DNA of 5,875 nucleotides from a virus (IMGVR_UViG_2778261251_000017); one strand, 5' to 3'. Numbered from the stretch's first letter, positions 1 through 4,807 are shown. Notes: a model not told the origin generated them from the sequence alone. A program made the numbers and translations.

Positions 1-23
1 GAAAAACGAGTATTTTTAGTCAT
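1..23 (-). CDS. IS3-family transposase OrfA, first 7 codons only (5-prime partial; continues beyond window)
   Basis: ATG at 23..21 on the minus strand, preceded by GAAAGAGG with 8-nt spacing. Translation MTKNTRF is the N-terminus I associate with IS629/IS1203 OrfA. Confidence 0.6.
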
Positions 24-77
24 CCTGTTTACCTCTTTCTCAGGGAGTTTAGTCTCCAGGATTTCCGGGGCGGTTCA
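1..77 (-). mobile_element. Terminal 77 bp of an IS3-family insertion sequence (IS629/IS1203/IS3411-like end); the body of the element lies beyond the window start
   Basis: The minus strand from 77 downward reads TGAACCGCCCCGGAAATCCTGGAGACTAAACTCCCTGAGAAAGAGGTAAACAGG followed by ATG ACT AAA AAT ACT CGT TTT. This is a TGA-initiated terminal inverted repeat, then an SD (AGAGG), then an orfA start encoding MTKNTRF, which matches my recollection of the IS629-group left end. Not verified against ISfinder. Confidence 0.7.
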
Positions 78-132
78 CTCAGATTAATGTTAAGCGTCTT
101 GCAGGACGCGTAATGTTAACTGGGGCTTTTCT

Positions 133-168
133 CTATCTGCCTTTGGTGTTCATGCCCGAGGCAGATAG
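133..168. repeat. Perfect 9-bp inverted repeat CTATCTGCC / GGCAGATAG separated by 18 nt
   Basis: Seen directly in the sequence (133-141 and 160-168). No U-tract follows on either strand, so it is not an intrinsic terminator. Possibly a protein-binding or recombination site at the cargo boundary. Confidence 0.5.
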
Positions 169-283
169 CCTCAAGCACCCGCAGCCATTCTACTTAACTA
201 CCTTTACCTCGCCAATATGAAATCAGTCAGAAAGACGATCCATAAGAACAATAGCAAGATTTCTTAATGGAGATGGATGTAAG

Positions 284-1771
284 CTAAATATTTTGGCTCG
301 GTCTGCTTTCTATTAAATGCAACCTGTATTTTAAAGCATGATGTGTCCTAAACTCATTTTGTAGATTAATTTTTAAGTTAGGCAAACTACTTACGTATTC
401 CCATCTACCTTGTTTTTTTTGTCCGATAAGTGAGTTATCAAACAGGAAGTTGATATATTGACGTATCACCCCATCAGAAATACCTGCAAATTCATTACGG
501 CACTTCTCGGAGAAATCATTAAAATCGAATGTTTCTACTTGGATAGTTTGAAGAACAGTTAGTAAGTTCTCAATTTCAGGGAATTGGTTGGACCATTCAT
601 CAATCACCTCATTGTACACACTTATAGATGCTTCACGGTCAGCTTCATAAAGCTCATTGGAAGTGTAAAGACCTGAGACATTATTTTTATGACATGCCCT
701 AATTTTGTTGAAGTAGACAATAATATCCCTAGGCCTAAAGAAAGAACGGCGACATATATATTTAAATGGAGGAGTCCCCTGCCTAACGAATGAAACCTCA
801 AATACTTTCCCAGATCTGTCCTTTTCGTCATCTAATATGAGATCATTAGGTTTGTATTTCTTTATCCTCTCATAATACATATCGTTTAGATTATTTTCAT
901 TCCATGAGATTATGATAGCACTATCTTGCAATAATTTGTTTTTATCATTGAATTTCAAAGAATGATAAATATCCGTTCGTAGGAAGGGAATGACTTTTAA
1001 TTTATCATTGAGGCGTTCATCAGATGCTATGTTTCTACAGACATTTAGCAGATTTATTAAAACCTTACTATATTCTTCAATTTGCCCCTCTAGCCAGTTT
1101 TCGTCTAATTGGTCAAGGGCGATAATTATTTTTTCATTACCAATGTTATCTTTAAAAATTTTTTCAAAATACGTAAGCAATGTGAAAGCATTAGCTCTTA
1201 GCTTTTGCTTTAGCTGAGCATTCTCAGCAACTTCCTCTAACGAAATTTCACCTGCGTCCAATGATACTTCATTAAGACCAGCACTGGGCCCTTTTATGGT
1301 TTTTAATCTGGTTATTTTTGAAAACAAAACCTCCCTAAGAGTTGGGTCGGGACTACCAAAGATAGTTTTGATATAATTATGTGCCCACGTTAGATCTTTG
1401 TTTAAAGTCTCTCCAGCATCATTTTTTATTTCAATAAGTTTAGATAATGCCTTAATATAAAAAAGATACATCCAACTTTTTTGATAAGCGGAAAGTTCTC
1501 CAGCCATTGCATCCTTGTAAAGTTGATGGGCTGGCCATGGATAGTCACTAAAATTTAGACATACTGAGTAAAACCCGTTGAGATTGGCTGGTTTTCCTCT
1601 TCTAAGGTGTTCATAAATGGCTGTTTTACCAGTACCTTTTCTTCCAAGAACCAACCAAGCCCTACTTTCAATAATATCCTTTATCGCCGGTAGCTTAAAA
1701 AAATAGGTCTGTAAGTCCCGATCTGTTTCTGCTGAAACTTGAAATTCTGGTAGCCAGTCTCTAATGTCCAC
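284..1771 (-). CDS. P-loop NTPase, 495 aa, family unassigned (Walker A near N-terminus, Walker B about 170 residues later); candidate anti-phage or abortive-infection cargo gene
   Basis: Long ORF with a GTG start at 1771..1769 and an AAGAGGA SD 5 nt upstream. The ATG two nt upstream is out of frame. Walker A LVLGRKGTGKT is encoded at about 1622-1648 and the Walker B-like IIIALDQLDE at about 1100-1129. The gene and its upstream region are markedly AT-rich compared with the neighbouring phage genes (judged by eye, not computed). Stop TAG at 286..284. Confidence 0.8.
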   Translation of the reverse strand: MDIRDWLPEFQVSAETDRDLQTYFFKLPAIKDIIESRAWLVLGRKGTGKTAIYEHLRRGKPANLNGFYSVCLNFSDYPWPAHQLYKDAMAGELSAYQKSWMYLFYIKALSKLIEIKNDAGETLNKDLTWAHNYIKTIFGSPDPTLREVLFSKITRLKTIKGPSAGLNEVSLDAGEISLEEVAENAQLKQKLRANAFTLLTYFEKIFKDNIGNEKIIIALDQLDENWLEGQIEEYSKVLINLLNVCRNIASDERLNDKLKVIPFLRTDIYHSLKFNDKNKLLQDSAIIISWNENNLNDMYYERIKKYKPNDLILDDEKDRSGKVFEVSFVRQGTPPFKYICRRSFFRPRDIIVYFNKIRACHKNNVSGLYTSNELYEADREASISVYNEVIDEWSNQFPEIENLLTVLQTIQVETFDFNDFSEKCRNEFAGISDGVIRQYINFLFDNSLIGQKKQGRWEYVSSLPNLKINLQNEFRTHHALKYRLHLIESRPSQNI

Positions 1772-2113: not shown

Positions 2114-2509
2114 CTAATAAAACGACAATATGCGCTGCATAACTTCGCTCTTCCGGCACTCGCGACAGATTATGTTTAGACGACTGTCGTAGCGACGTAT
2201 TTCTCCATCAGGTAGTGACCAGATAAGGTCCGGATCAACCACAGCGGGTTTCTTCACCTTCGCCCTAGAGAGTTTTTTGCGGGCATTTTGCCAGTCCTTT
2301 CGTGCCTGTTCAGACGGGAATAACCCGTAGCCGGAGTTGTATACATAACCACTGGCAACCAGCTCTCTGGCAAGAATGCTCATCAGATATCTTGTCGCAC
2401 CTGTTTTAGCTTCCAACTGTCGTAATGTCTCGCGACCGCTCTGGCGCACAAGTTCGACCACCTGCTCTTTAATTTTTTCCCGCTCTTCCTGTGTAAAAAC
2501 TTTTGCCAC
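2114..2509 (-). CDS. Hypothetical phage protein, 131 aa, with a possible helix-turn-helix segment (TGATRYLMSILARELVASG); sits where a helicase loader would be expected
   Basis: ORF with a GTG start at 2509..2507 preceded by AAGGAGG (4-nt spacer). Codon composition is like the neighbouring phage genes. I do not recognise the family. Confidence 0.6.
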   Translation of the reverse strand: MAKVFTQEEREKIKEQVVELVRQSGRETLRQLEAKTGATRYLMSILARELVASGYVYNSGYGLFPSEQARKDWQNARKKLSRAKVKKPAVVDPDLIWSLPDGEIRRYDSRLNIICRECRKSEVMQRILSFY

Positions 2510-2549
2510 AAGTCCTCCTTAAAATTACCTCATGACCTGAAATCAACAC

Positions 2550-3515
2550 TTATCCCCTGAAACCAGGCGGAATTTCTGTATCCGGTTCAGAAATATGATT
2601 CACACAACGCTGTACAGGTGAACGTCCCAAGCGGATGACCAGTTCGTCCCATTTTTCGCGGAGTTTTGACGGGCTCATGATGTTTTTTACCCAGAATGGA
2701 TCTCGCTGTACCCGACCAAACATTTCGCAAATTTGTCTGTGGCTTCTGCCATCCAGCATCCGCATTGTGCGCACGTCATTGGCCCAGGCTGTCCAGTTAG
2801 GCTCTTTTGGTCGCATGATCTCTCCATCGTCGCTGGCAGCCTGTTCGTAAAGGTTCACGATCCGCCCCCAAATCCACTGCGCACACGCCAAATCCTCCCT
2901 GCTACCCCACTGGCGTTTTTTCGCACTAAACACAACCGCGTCGGGGTTCCGGGTTAAAAAATCCTGTTCAGCGGTCTGCGGGTCCGGTTGCGAAGCTTCC
3001 GGACGAAAAGTGTTTTTATTCTCTGTAGTAATCTCTGTTGTATTCTCTGTAAGATCATCAGGCCATTTTGACCCGATGACATTGGGTCGTTTTGAACCAA
3101 TGGAGCGTTTCATTTTGACCTCTTCCATCGTGTCATTTTGACCTGATGGAGCGGCGCATTTTGAACCGATGGATTCGTTCAATTTGCCACCATCTAAAAG
3201 CTCGCTCCCATAGTTGATCGTGTAGAAATTGGTCATATCGCGCTTTGATTTATTGAGCTTTTCACAACGCAAAAGCCCCAGCGTTTTCAGACTTGCAAAC
3301 GCGCGCTTTAACGTTGACTCTGGCCAGAATGGGAACTGTTCCAGCCATTGTTCCGTTGTGTTGTAAATCCAGCGAACACCATCACATTCCATGCCGGAAT
3401 TGGTATCTCTCAACCAGTAATGCAGTTGCTGCAACACAATGGCTTCGTTTAAGCCAATCTTCATCGCAAGCTGTGTGTTTATAACCAGTGGGCGTTCAGC
3501 AAAAAGAAGGCTCAT
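2550..3515 (-). CDS. Phage replication initiator (lambda O-like replisome organiser) with iterons embedded in the coding sequence
   Basis: ORF on the minus strand. The preferred start is ATG at 3515..3513 (MSLLFAERPLV...). The ORF track extends to a TTG at 3569, which I consider less likely. The N-terminal region looks like a winged-HTH DNA-binding domain. The central region is encoded by a direct-repeat array (protein repeats IGSK match DNA repeats GGTTCAAAATG), as with lambda ori inside the O gene. Position is downstream of cro. Confidence 0.7.
   Translation of the reverse strand: MSLLFAERPLVINTQLAMKIGLNEAIVLQQLHYWLRDTNSGMECDGVRWIYNTTEQWLEQFPFWPESTLKRAFASLKTLGLLRCEKLNKSKRDMTNFYTINYGSELLDGGKLNESIGSKCAAPSGQNDTMEEVKMKRSIGSKRPNVIGSKWPDDLTENTTEITTENKNTFRPEASQPDPQTAEQDFLTRNPDAVVFSAKKRQWGSREDLACAQWIWGRIVNLYEQAASDDGEIMRPKEPNWTAWANDVRTMRMLDGRSHRQICEMFGRVQRDPFWVKNIMSPSKLREKWDELVIRLGRSPVQRCVNHISEPDTEIPPGFRG
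3004..3055. repeat. AT-rich tract with three tandem TCTCTGT(A/T)GTA-type repeats adjacent to the iterons; putative DNA-unwinding element of the origin
   Basis: GAAAAGTGTTTTTAT is followed by TTCTCTGTAGTAA, TCTCTGTTGTA and TTCTCTGTAAGA (about 3019-3054), immediately on the C-terminal side of the iteron array. The layout resembles the lambda ori (iterons followed by an AT-rich region). Confidence 0.5.
3064..3190. repeat. Iteron array: six direct repeats of core CATTTTGA(A)CC at 23-24 bp spacing; putative phage origin of replication
   Basis: Copies start at 3064, 3088, 3111, 3134, 3157 and 3180 (the last is degenerate, CAATTTGCC). Each is followed by a (G)ATGG-like tail. The array lies inside the replication-initiator ORF. 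Confidence 0.75.
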
Positions 3516-4017
3516 AATTCCATCCAGCTTTTTGTTGGTATTGCAGTCGATACGCAAGTTTGAAAGCAATTGCTTTTTCTATAAGTTCGTCAGTTTCACG
3601 ATCCACTACGGCAGGATCAGCAAAAAGCAGTCCGGACTCCACCACATCGCCATATTCTTTGTTTAACCCGGCGATCATGTACGTGATGCTTTTTCCGTCA
3701 CTAATTTCACGATACAACCTGAAATCATTAATCCGGATAGCCTCCATAATTGCAGGCACTAGCGCCGTGAACTTTTCACGCTTATCCCTAGTGTCGATAG
3801 CCTTCCAGCGTTCGAATATCTTCACTCGATTAACGCCAAGCGCTCGCTGATCAACCGCGCCACCTTCATCTGTGACACGCTGAACATCGATGTTCGGGCG
3901 CTCTTTCAAAGCCCAGAATGCTTCAGTGATTAATATCGTCGCCTGCTCCTGTGTCATTCCTGGTCGACATATCCAGGCATCCAGAGCCTCACGAGCCTGT
4001 TCAGGAGTGATTTTCAT
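3496..4017 (-). CDS. Hypothetical phage early protein, 173 aa, in the position occupied by CII in lambda; family not recognised
   Basis: ATG at 4017..4015 overlaps the cro stop (TGA at 4003..4001) by 17 bp. Its 3-prime end overlaps the preferred rep start by 20 bp. This suggests a translationally coupled cro-orf173-rep operon. Confidence 0.65.
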   Translation of the reverse strand: MKITPEQAREALDAWICRPGMTQEQATILITEAFWALKERPNIDVQRVTDEGGAVDQRALGVNRVKIFERWKAIDTRDKREKFTALVPAIMEAIRINDFRLYREISDGKSITYMIAGLNKEYGDVVESGLLFADPAVVDRETDELIEKAIAFKLAYRLQYQQKAGWNYEPSFC

Positions 4018-4228
4018 TGTTCAACCGCCCCGCCCGCTTCGTCTTACGATATTCGTCATAAACTTTGGGATCATACTGAAGCTCCCCGCCAGATGCCTCC
4101 TGTAGACGCATCGCGCGACCTTCAGGAACCAGTATCCCCCAAGCAGCAACACTTGCCAGTCTCACTCCTGCGGCATTGGCAAGCTTTGTTTTGCTGCCAA
4201 AAAAAGTAATTGCGTCAGCTTTAAGCAT
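4001..4228 (-). CDS. dicC: Cro-like regulator of the DicC/YdaS family, 75 aa
   Basis: ATG at 4228..4226 with a strong SD AGGAGG 5 nt upstream. The track start at 4231 is TTG and too close to the SD. It contains the FGSKTKLA...GV...VxxW motif typical of YdaS/DicC-type Cro proteins. It is divergent from the repressor gene with an operator palindrome between them. Assignment from memory; size matches DicC. Confidence 0.65.
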   Translation of the reverse strand: MLKADAITFFGSKTKLANAAGVRLASVAAWGILVPEGRAMRLQEASGGELQYDPKVYDEYRKTKRAGRLNNENHS

Positions 4229-4241
4229 CAAAGCCTCCTAT

Positions 4242-4259
4242 TGTTAGACTTTTCTAACA
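4242..4259. promoter_or_regulatory. Operator palindrome TGTTAGA-CTTT-TCTAACA in the cro/repressor intergenic region (OR-like)
   Basis: Perfect 7-bp arms with a 4-bp spacer, seen directly. It overlaps the predicted -10 and transcription start of the cro promoter. Confidence 0.65.
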
Positions 4260-4308: not shown

Positions 4309-4716
4309 ATGGATACAAGAACCCTAGGCCAGCGAGTTCTGGCGCGACGAAAAGAATTACGCTTAACACAACGAGAAGCTGCGCGCCTCGCTGGGGTTGC
4401 TCACGTCACAATTTCACAATGGGAAAGAGACGAAACCCAGCCAGTCGGAAAACGATTGTTTGCTTTAGCGGATGCTCTGAAGTGCTCACCTACATGGCTA
4501 ATGTTTGGTGACGAAGACAAGGCACCAGTGCCGGCACAAGAACTTCATGTGGAAACAGAGCTAACTCCCAACCACAAAGAATTGATCGAATTATTCGATG
4601 CTCTTCCATCTTCCGAGCAGGAAGCCTTGCTGTCTGAAATGCGCGCAAGAGTAGAAAACTTCAACAAACTCTTCGAAGAAATGCTTAAAGCGCGTAAAAA
4701 TAAATCAATAAAATAA
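4309..4716 (+). CDS. dicA: XRE-family HTH repressor, DicA-like (CI-type immunity repressor without a peptidase domain), 135 aa
   Basis: N-terminal HTH (LRLTQREAARLAGVAHVTISQWE) and a C-terminal helical region with SPTWLMFGDED and NFNKLFEEMLKAR motifs that I recall from E. coli DicA. Same length as DicA (135 aa). Divergent from a DicC-like cro and flanked by matching palindromic operators. No SD upstream of the ATG. Confidence 0.75.
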   Translation: MDTRTLGQRVLARRKELRLTQREAARLAGVAHVTISQWERDETQPVGKRLFALADALKCSPTWLMFGDEDKAPVPAQELHVETELTPNHKELIELFDALPSSEQEALLSEMRARVENFNKLFEEMLKARKNKSIK

Positions 4717-4751: not shown

Positions 4752-4771
4752 TTGTTAGACTAATCTAACAA
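4752..4771. promoter_or_regulatory. Operator palindrome TTGTTAGA-CTAA-TCTAACAA downstream of the repressor gene (OL-like)
   Basis: Perfect 8-bp arms with a 4-bp spacer. Same half-site as the operator at 4242-4259. Confidence 0.65.
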
Positions 4772-4778
4772 AAAACAC

Positions 4779-4807
4779 TTGCCTCTTATGTTAGGTTATT
4801 CTAAATT
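4779..4807 (+). promoter_or_regulatory. Putative sigma70 promoter of the early-left (dicB-type) operon
   Basis: -35 TTGCCT (4779-4784), 17-nt spacer, -10 TAAATT (4802-4807), bracketed by the operator copies. An alternative is TTGCGC (4737-4742) with TAATCT (4761-4766). Pattern match only. Confidence 0.4.
4789..4806. promoter_or_regulatory. Degenerate third operator copy TGTTAGg-TTAT-TCTAAat
   Basis: Matches 6/7 and 5/7 positions of the half-sites, with the same 4-bp spacer. It lies 36 bp from the 4752-4771 site and overlaps the spacer and -10 of the predicted early-left promoter. Confidence 0.4.

Follow-up and report, generated by a model that had tools for sequence, protein, structure and literature searches.

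Within a 5,875-nucleotide stretch of viral DNA (the window), positions 2982–3191 very probably serve a Qin/DicA-type lambdoid (pro)phage as its vegetative replication origin. The putative origin lies inside the gene for an O-like replication initiator (rep), in the part of the gene that encodes a disordered linker between two domains. In the direction of the gene, it would consist of six iterons, three tandem 12-bp repeats (12-mers), and a palindrome.

The rep gene and its product

The window corresponds to the early region of a Qin/DicA-type lambdoid E. coli prophage and is 99.9% identical to E. coli ETEC1738. Its replication part is also 96–98% identical to that of mEp460_ev081, HannyBb, and PhiR42_1, which are isolated, viable phages that carry this replication module. 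The rep gene (2550–3515, minus strand) encodes a protein of 321 amino acids (Rep). Its 966-nucleotide ORF begins with an ATG, and PGAP places the start of its CDS at the same ATG in the E. coli locus with 99.9% identity. Upstream of rep are a YdaT/cII-like gene (3496–4017, minus strand), which overlaps rep by 20 nucleotides, a DicC/Cro-like gene (4001–4231, minus strand), and the gene for a DicA-like repressor (4309–4716), which is divergent from the minus-strand genes. The next gene downstream of rep is DUF977/Ren-like (2114–2509, minus strand; “Ren-like” in PHROG), and it is followed by a gene for a Sll1717-family ATPase (284–1771, minus strand). No P- or DnaC-type helicase loader gene is annotated in the window or in those parts of the prophage that flank it and carry annotation (a 17.8-kb locus).

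Rep matches PHROG 391 (“replication initiation O-like,” E = 5e-92). PGAP labels it a “hypothetical protein,” and some phage records name it “Primosomal protein I,” which is DnaT. We rejected the DnaT label because Pfam and NCBIfam give a match to the 20-residue tail only: the similarity is confined to the last 20–21 residues of Rep instead of running the full length, and the score against the NCBIfam model for DnaT is 16.3 bits (the cutoff is 201), with model positions 160–179 matched. Apart from this tail match, Pfam and NCBIfam returned no family for Rep, and there was no Pfam match even at E ≤ 10.

The AlphaFold 2 (AF2) model of Rep has three parts: a winged-helix N-terminal domain, a disordered stretch (residues 110–180), and a helical C-terminal domain. 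The N-terminal domain (approximately residues 1–108; 3192–3515, minus strand) is presumed to bind the iterons, and residues 11–105 are modeled with a pLDDT of 80–92. In the linker, pLDDT is below 40, so that it is predicted to be disordered. The iterons encode residues 109–152, at the start of this linker, and the iterons and 12-mers together encode residues 109–171. The C-terminal domain (approximately residues 183–298; 2622–2969, minus strand) is homologous to the C-terminal domains of lambda O and phi80 gp15, as judged by BLASTP, by tblastn against phages, and by the AF2 model. BLASTP aligns residues 147–294 of Rep to residues 135–270 of lambda O (34% identity over 148 amino acids, E = 5e-28), and Rep is 36% identical to phi80 gp15 (E = 5e-26). 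The alignment to lambda O spans the last iteron, the A-rich tract, and the C-terminal domain.

The N-terminal domain of Rep had no BLASTP match to the N-terminal domain of lambda O and no match to Pfam's Phage_rep_O. Given this and the similarity of the C-terminal side to lambda O and phi80 gp15, rep is a mosaic, in which an N-terminal domain from another family and its cognate iterons are joined to a lambda-O-type right half. A sequence search of the PDB gave no match to this domain. Its best structural matches in the PDB, according to Foldseek, are the N-terminal domain of RepA_N from staphylococcal plasmids, alone (4PQL) and with iteron DNA (5KBJ), with a TM score of 0.55. These matches are weak (18–20% identity, an rmsd of about 3 Å, and E = 4.7e-3 for 4PQL_B), and other winged-helix regulators score almost as well. 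A protein search with the N-terminal domain alone returned mostly fragments, which served solely to enlarge the alignment behind the structure prediction.

The last 21 residues of Rep (VQRCVNHISEPDTEIPPGFRG; 2553–2615, minus strand) resemble the extreme C terminus of E. coli DnaT (PDB entries 2RU8, 6AEP, and 9ZBT, with E = 0.013–0.04). Rep could use this tail as a handle on the host replisome. An excerpt of the preprimosome paper PMC13377028 does not state a role for the C-terminal tail of DnaT.

Iterons, 12-mers, and a palindrome within rep

The six iterons occupy 3059–3191 and lie entirely within the minus-strand rep ORF (nucleotides 324–456 of 966). In the direction of the gene, the core of the iteron is a dyad, GGTCA-AAA-TGACC. 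On the plus strand, the motif CRTTTTGAMC occurs five times (at 3064, 3088, 3111, 3134, and 3157); 0.05 occurrences are expected, and none of 200 shuffled sequences reached five. The sixth copy, at 3180, is degenerate (CAATTTGCCACC). The start-to-start spacings are 24, 23, 23, 23, and 23. TRF reports a period of 23 with 3.7 copies and a score of 70, and a separate search for repeat families agrees.

Numbered in the direction of the gene, and all on the minus strand, the copies are iteron 1 (GGTGGCAAATTGAACGA, 3175–3191), iteron 2 (CGGTTCAAAATGCGCCG, 3152–3168), iteron 3 (CAGGTCAAAATGACACG, 3129–3145), iteron 4 (GAGGTCAAAATGAAACG, 3106–3122), iteron 5 (TGGTTCAAAACGACCCA, 3083–3099), and iteron 6 (CGGGTCAAAATGGCCTG, 3059–3075). 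Iteron 3 has the best dyad (GGTCA-AAA-TGAC). Iteron 1 is the degenerate copy; at its position, homologues from enterobacteria carry the complete dyad (GAGGTCAAAGTGACC). The copies that deviate from the iteron consensus are 1 and 5, and variants with just two iterons are retained in genomes; both facts speak against the reading as an origin. A period of 23 bp is not a whole number of codons, so the copies fall into three different reading frames, and this mixed reading was the first sign of a signal in the DNA. The peptides encoded by iterons 1–6 are GGKL, IGSK, SGQN, EVKM, IGSK, and IGSK; in longer form, iterons 2–6 are read as I-G-S-K-C, S-G-Q-N-D, E-V-K-M-K (in a different frame), I-G-S-K-R, and I-G-S-K-W. 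Judging from the sequence, these repeats are real DNA signals and not protein repeats. The initial annotation had described repeats with a regular period of 23–24 bp inside rep, and both their number (six, far above what shuffling gives) and their regularity hold up. It had also described the repeats as mirrored by IGSK in the protein, which is true of three iterons but not of the other three.

After the iterons come three 12-bp repeats at 3017–3052 (TATTCTCTGTAG, TAATCTCTGTTG, and TATTCTCTGTAA). In the direction of the gene, their consensus is (T/A)ACAGAGA(A/T)TAC. These 12-mers (TACAGAGAATAC, AACAGAGATTAC, and TACAGAGAATAA) and an A-rich tail form a proposed unwinding or loading element (3005–3053, minus strand). 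TCTCTGT occurs three times, versus 0.69 times expected, and 6 of 200 shuffled sequences reached three, so the count alone is marginal. We nevertheless consider the 12-mers to be real because of their exact 12-bp tandem spacing and because they are conserved in the family. As had been proposed, they are also mirrored in the protein: the 12-mers are in frame and encode TENT-TEIT-TENK. The 12-mer tract is 72% A+T, versus 51% for the rep ORF, and it contains the gene's least stable 40-mer (-44.3 kcal/mol, versus a mean of -52.3 for the window). Across the whole window, the tract's stability ranks 324th of 5,836, so it is not the least stable site there.

Directly after the 12-mer tract lies an inverted repeat, GTCCGG-(11)-CCGGAC (2982–3004), and homologues have a co-varying palindrome at the same place. 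A search of Rfam with the origin region found no RNA family.

Comparison across homologous rep genes

To compare these features across homologous rep genes, we used 80 loci that encode relatives of Rep, which were found by scanning a single genome for each GTDB species. They range from Enterobacterales, Pantoea, Pseudomonas, Acinetobacter, and Photobacterium to Staphylococcus, Bacillus, lactobacilli, and Clostridia. (A scan of viral contigs for relatives of Rep yielded only near-identical copies.) Whether homologues retain the periodicity had been set in advance as a test that could refute the origin, and we found that periodicity, dyad iterons, 12-mers, and the palindrome all recur across phyla. 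For 62 of 77 linkers (the 220 nucleotides after the N-terminal domain), the best autocorrelation was at a lag of 22–24 (and at exactly 23 for 44 of them), versus 5 of 77 for controls from the N-terminal domain. Similarly, 53 of 81 linkers had at least three phased CA-N3-TG cores, while four control regions of equal size had them in 0, 0, 2, and 0 of 81 cases.

At each locus, the iteron consensus is palindromic around CA-AWW-TG, but the arms vary. The arms are GGTCA/TGACC in E. coli and Staphylococcus caprae; GGACA/TGTCC in Pantoea and Mixta; GGGCA/TGCMC in Pantoea, Pseudomonas, and Acinetobacter; GGATCA/TGATCC in Limosilactobacillus; TTGCTCA/TGAGCAA in Cellulosilyticum; and TTACCCA/TGGGTA in Moraxella. 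The base that adjoins the core in one arm is complementary to that in the other arm at 40 of 48 distinct consensus sites (17.9 ± 2.9 expected), with four types of pairs.

The identity of this base is associated with residue 67 of Rep (1.42 bits of information). In the Rep of the window, S67 is located where the predicted recognition helix (residues 66–78) begins and directly precedes the invariant T68. Among 25 clusters of Rep proteins that are below 70% identity to each other, serine goes with T (8 of 8), aspartate with G (7 of 8), lysine with A (3 of 3), and alanine or proline with T (4 of 4); asparagine pairs with C or T. The mutual information over these clusters is 1.28 bits, which was not reached in any of 10,000 permutations, although the loci's shared ancestry inflates these statistics to some degree. 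The pairings are the same in distant phyla. We consider this co-variation to be the best available computational evidence that the N-terminal domain reads the iterons.

The 12-mers are also widespread. CAGAGA occurs 170 times in the 261 nucleotides after the iterons (in 81 ORFs) and just 8 times in the remaining 46 kb of these ORFs. Across the family, the spacing between copies is 12 (88 times) or, with a change of frame, 11 (6 times). Most of the copies are in one frame (148 of 161), and 13 copies are kept in other frames. Codon usage within the T-E-x-T repeats is strongly biased. Glutamate is encoded by GAG 150 times and by GAA 20 times, versus 630 and 829 times elsewhere, and this bias persists in A+T-rich genomes (31 and 6 times, versus 136 and 303 elsewhere). 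Threonine is encoded by ACA in 116 of 121 cases, versus 282 of 1,186 elsewhere. Furthermore, among eight enterobacterial homologues, the conservation of third codon positions is 0.96 in the 12-mers and 0.88 in the iterons, as compared to 0.71 in the N-terminal domain and 0.62 downstream. Together, the codon bias and the conservation of third positions in the 12-mers imply that selection acts on the nucleotide sequence.

The palindrome recurs as well. Within 60 nucleotides past the 12-mers, 64% of 50 loci have a perfect inverted repeat of at least 6 bp, versus 11% of 464 control windows. The arms of the palindrome co-vary (GGTTGC/GCAACC, GGTTTC/GAAACC, GGTTCC/GGAACC, and GCAGAA/TTCTGC).

In the homologues from A+T-rich Firmicutes, the 12-mer tract is no richer in A+T than its surroundings, which implies that a simple reading as an “AT-rich DUE” is incomplete. 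The AT-rich tract with three repeats that was initially reported is thus present in the window, but what is conserved across the family is the sequence of the CAGAGA 12-mers rather than the composition.

The N-terminal domain is also found on other kinds of replicons. It occurs on phage-plasmid-like replicons of roughly 40 kb and on a 16.4-kb plasmid of Bacillus weihaiensis, where its gene is the only recognisable replication gene. The plasmid gene has three GGACAAATTGACC-type sites with a spacing of 22 bp, followed by CAGAGA/CAAAGA 12-mers. (These diverged iterons were found by eye and with a pattern; a repeat search with a seed of 7 missed them.)

More tentatively, these observations raise the possibility that the (T/A)ACAGAGAnTAC 12-mers are more than a tract that melts easily: they might be a sequence-specific origin element that is common to a very wide family of initiators from phages, prophages, and plasmids, whose members range from those of Enterobacterales to those of Staphylococcus, of Clostridia, and of plasmids in cyanobacteria. 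The element might be read by the conserved N-terminal domain, perhaps as single-stranded DNA, and the iterons might follow a reprogrammable code of one residue to one base (serine, alanine, or proline to T; aspartate to G; lysine to A; asparagine to C). The conserved N-terminal domain is the only part of the protein that is common to all of these initiators.

Alternative explanations, proposed mechanism, and related origins

Of the alternatives that we considered, the strongest is that the repeats are binding sites through which Rep regulates its own expression, controls copy number (handcuffing), or excludes related phages, with the true origin elsewhere. We think that this is unlikely. The iterons of plasmids do also serve in copy control, related phages are inhibited by cloned iterons from lambda ori (according to excerpts of PMC3349717 and PMC4488673), and the co-variation of residue 67 speaks for binding rather than for firing. 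But the iterons always precede the conserved 12-mers and the palindrome, in the same order as in the lambda and phi80 origins. Also, TRF found no array in the window other than the iterons, the 12-mers, and a short 6-bp array at 1187–1215. The equivalent intragenic sites in lambda and in pSK41 are the origin (lambda annotation; PMC5703833). And on the 16.4-kb plasmid, the homologue of rep is the only recognisable replication function.

Another explanation is that the repeats are sites for some other factor (YdaT/cII-like, DicA/DicC, or a host protein), or that they are recombination-prone repeats that vary the length of Rep. Genes for regulators do adjoin rep, and there is a natural Rep variant of 290 amino acids with a clean in-frame deletion of 93 bp (4 units, or 31 amino acids), between iterons 2 and 6. 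However, a deletion of this kind is an expected by-product of direct repeats in the DNA. The arrays accompany the N-terminal domain of Rep in Firmicutes, on cyanobacterial plasmids, and in other settings where these regulators are missing; the arm of the iteron tracks a residue of Rep; and DicA-type operators are a different palindrome and are located elsewhere. We rejected the neighboring regulators as the explanation because the arrays occur without them and because of the link between arm and residue, and we consider this whole class of explanations to be quite improbable.

Finally, that the repeats are merely a low-complexity linker at the protein level, as the three IGSK peptides, the tandem TENT/TEIT/TENK, and the predominance of one frame among the 12-mers (148 of 161) might hint, is hardly credible, and we rejected it: with a period of 23 bp, DNA repeats cannot give rise to a repeated peptide, three of the six iterons yield other peptides, the arms of the iterons co-vary as a palindrome, 13 copies of CAGAGA are kept in other frames, the ACA-GAG choice of codons is fixed even in A+T-rich genomes, and synonymous sites are more conserved in the repeats than in the folded N-terminal domain.

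If 2982–3191 is the origin, then dimers of Rep would bind the six dyad iterons via the N-terminal winged helix, with residue 67 reading the arm base that adjoins the CA/TG core. The 23-bp spacing, or about 2.2 helical turns, would set successive dimers on a superhelical path, and because of this phasing, the DNA would wrap into an O-some-like complex. The resulting strain could be released in the adjacent 12-mer tract (ACAGAGAATAC, three times), the part of the gene with the lowest stability. The conservation of the tract's sequence suggests that the tract is specifically recognized as well, perhaps in single-stranded form. Since the module has no gene for a P- or DnaC-type loader, we conjecture that the lambda-O-like C-terminal domain and the DnaT-like tail recruit the host's DnaB-DnaC directly.

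The proposed origin resembles those of lambda and phi80 in its layout. In lambda, the annotated iterons are at nucleotides 349–433 of O, at the junction of the N- and C-terminal domains, and their position within rep is similar (324–456). The iterons of lambda are spaced by 20, 24, and 23 bp, and those in gene 15 of phi80 by 21 bp. Like the rep iteron, the lambda iteron is a dyad around an A-tract (TCCCTCAAAACGAGGGA). In both phages, as in rep, a purine- or A-rich tract and then a palindrome follow the iterons in the direction of the gene; the palindrome of phi80 is TTCGTC-10-GACGAA, and its counterpart in rep takes the place of the palindrome that lies to the right of the A/T-rich region in the lambda and phi80 origins. 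The initiators share a homologous C-terminal domain. However, the N-terminal domain of Rep is not of the lambda O type, and rep has six iterons instead of lambda's four. What follows the iterons is a strict 12-bp repeat of CAGAGA, unlike in lambda or phi80; Rep ends in a DnaT-like tail, unlike lambda O or phi80 gp15; and rep is followed by the DUF977/Ren-like gene instead of a gene for a loader (P or gp14). The lambda-like ori-in-O arrangement that was originally suggested is supported by comparison, in the layout, the dyads, and the homology of the C-terminal domain; it needs refinement as to the type of N-terminal domain and the lack of a P-type loader gene. Stx phages, as described in an excerpt of PMC7466680, provide another lambdoid origin of E. 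coli that lies inside O and has six iterons rather than four, but they differ from rep in having true lambda-O N-terminal domains, lambda-type iterons, and a P gene.

There are also parallels to the RepA_N theta plasmids of Firmicutes. RepA of pSK41 (319 amino acids) has an N-terminal domain that binds four Rep boxes in the center of its own gene, a linker that is encoded by the origin and is dispensable, and a host-specific C-terminal domain (PMC5703833). Rep and the RepA proteins of pSK41 and pTZ2162 are three-part initiators of nearly the same length (321 versus 319 amino acids). RepA has a winged-helix N-terminal domain of about 120 amino acids, and that of Rep is predicted to be a winged helix, with only the weak structural match described above. 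In RepA, the origin is central in the gene and encodes the interdomain linker, and the putative origin in rep is placed likewise. But Rep does not match Pfam's RepA_N (PF06970) and is not a member of that family at the sequence level. Its C-terminal domain is lambda-O-like, in contrast to the DnaD-like domain of RepA_N, and rep belongs to a phage while the RepA_N elements are plasmids.

In the basal unwinding system of chromosomal origins, DnaA-trios and the DnaD recognition element are short, phased, sequence-specific repeats in the unwinding region that are read as single strands and that lie directly after the initiator's double-stranded sites, the DnaA boxes (PMC10201434). The CAGAGA 12-mers are in the equivalent place. 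This is only an analogy: the chromosomal system involves other proteins, another motif, and a period of 3 nucleotides rather than 12 bp.

Searching the literature for the iteron and 12-mer sequences turned up unrelated material such as primers, and nothing in the context of replication. Keyword searches found work on lambda, Stx phages, and RepA_N, and nothing on this family of Rep proteins. That an origin can lie within the gene for its initiator is textbook knowledge and is not new. Our results support the view that the element belongs to a known class, the iteron origins embedded in initiator genes, and had gone unannotated. They address a gap in annotation, as the wrong or uninformative names for rep are accompanied by records in which no origin is marked. 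A putative origin and an initiator can now be assigned to a module that is widespread among E. coli prophages and isolated phages. This raises the question of how an O-like initiator loads DnaB without a P protein. The more interesting by-products may be the architecture shared across the family, the CAGAGA 12-mers, and the recognition rule that involves a single residue. Because the three-part origin (phased palindromic iterons, CAGAGA 12-mers, and a palindrome) recurs with relatives of Rep from many phyla, it should be possible to predict the origins of many phages and phage-plasmids.

Variation in iteron sequence and number

The arm base of the palindromic iterons within rep, which adjoins the CA/TG core, is predicted across phyla by one residue of the initiator. 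This is Rep residue 67 (window 3315–3317), which lies directly before the invariant T68 and which we compared in loci L083–L162, a set of loci with rep relatives. Serine, alanine, or proline at this position goes with T as the arm base, aspartate with G, lysine with A, and asparagine with C. The number of iterons varies as well. Natural prophage Rep variants of 290 amino acids (proteins P0016–P0022; locus L165, nucleotides 1786–1950) carry a clean in-frame deletion of 93 bp that runs from iteron 2 to iteron 6, and two iterons remain.

The ends of Rep

The final 21 residues of Rep (residues 301–321; window 2553–2615, minus strand), VQRCVNHISEPDTEIPPGFRG, are similar to the very C-terminal end of DnaT from E. 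coli (PDB 2RU8, 6AEP, and 9ZBT) and match positions 160–179 of the NCBIfam DnaT model. Among Rep homologues of 68–80% identity, IPxGFRG is conserved, although the residues before this motif diverge. The tail's match to DnaT is probably the source of the label “Primosomal protein I” in phage records. A P/DnaC-like gene, which would encode a helicase loader, is absent from the replication module. At the other end of the protein, the 3' end of the upstream ydaT/cII-like gene overlaps the start of rep, whose ATG lies 20 nt inside it (window 3496–3515), and this arrangement suggests that the two genes are translationally coupled. An alternative TTG start at 3569, which would give a longer open reading frame, is probably not used.

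Candidate operators and the left end of the window

The palindrome TGTTAG-N6-CTAACA, which is separate from the rep iterons, has four matches in total, versus 0.18 expected. Copies at window 4242–4259, 4753–4770, and 4789–4806 (two perfect and one with two mismatches) are likely repressor operators. One copy is in the gap that separates the DicC-like gene from the DicA-like gene, which diverge from each other, and two are upstream of the DUF1391 gene. At the left end, a full-length match to the sok antitoxin RNA (window 21–180, minus strand; Rfam RF01794, 62.3 bits) indicates a hok/sok-type toxin-antitoxin locus. Between this region and the DUF977 gene, within markedly A+T-rich DNA, is a gene for a 495-amino-acid P-loop ATPase of the Sll1717 family (window 284–1771, minus strand; NCBIfam E = 3.8e-74). 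Because another gene occupies this position in phage mEp460_ev081, the site looks like a swappable slot for a moron or defence cargo.

Relatives on plasmids

A 16.4-kb plasmid of Bacillus weihaiensis (NZ_CP016021.1) encodes a rep homologue (nucleotides 2492–3322) with three iterons at 22-bp spacing and CAGAGA/CAAAGA 12-mers. Other genes of this plasmid code for a tyrosine recombinase and for a protein of the FtsK/SpoIIIE type, and its annotation includes no replication gene besides the rep homologue. The N-terminal domain of Rep is also found on many 40–60-kb “plasmids” of Bacillus, Levilactobacillus, and Clostridium, which may be phage-plasmids.
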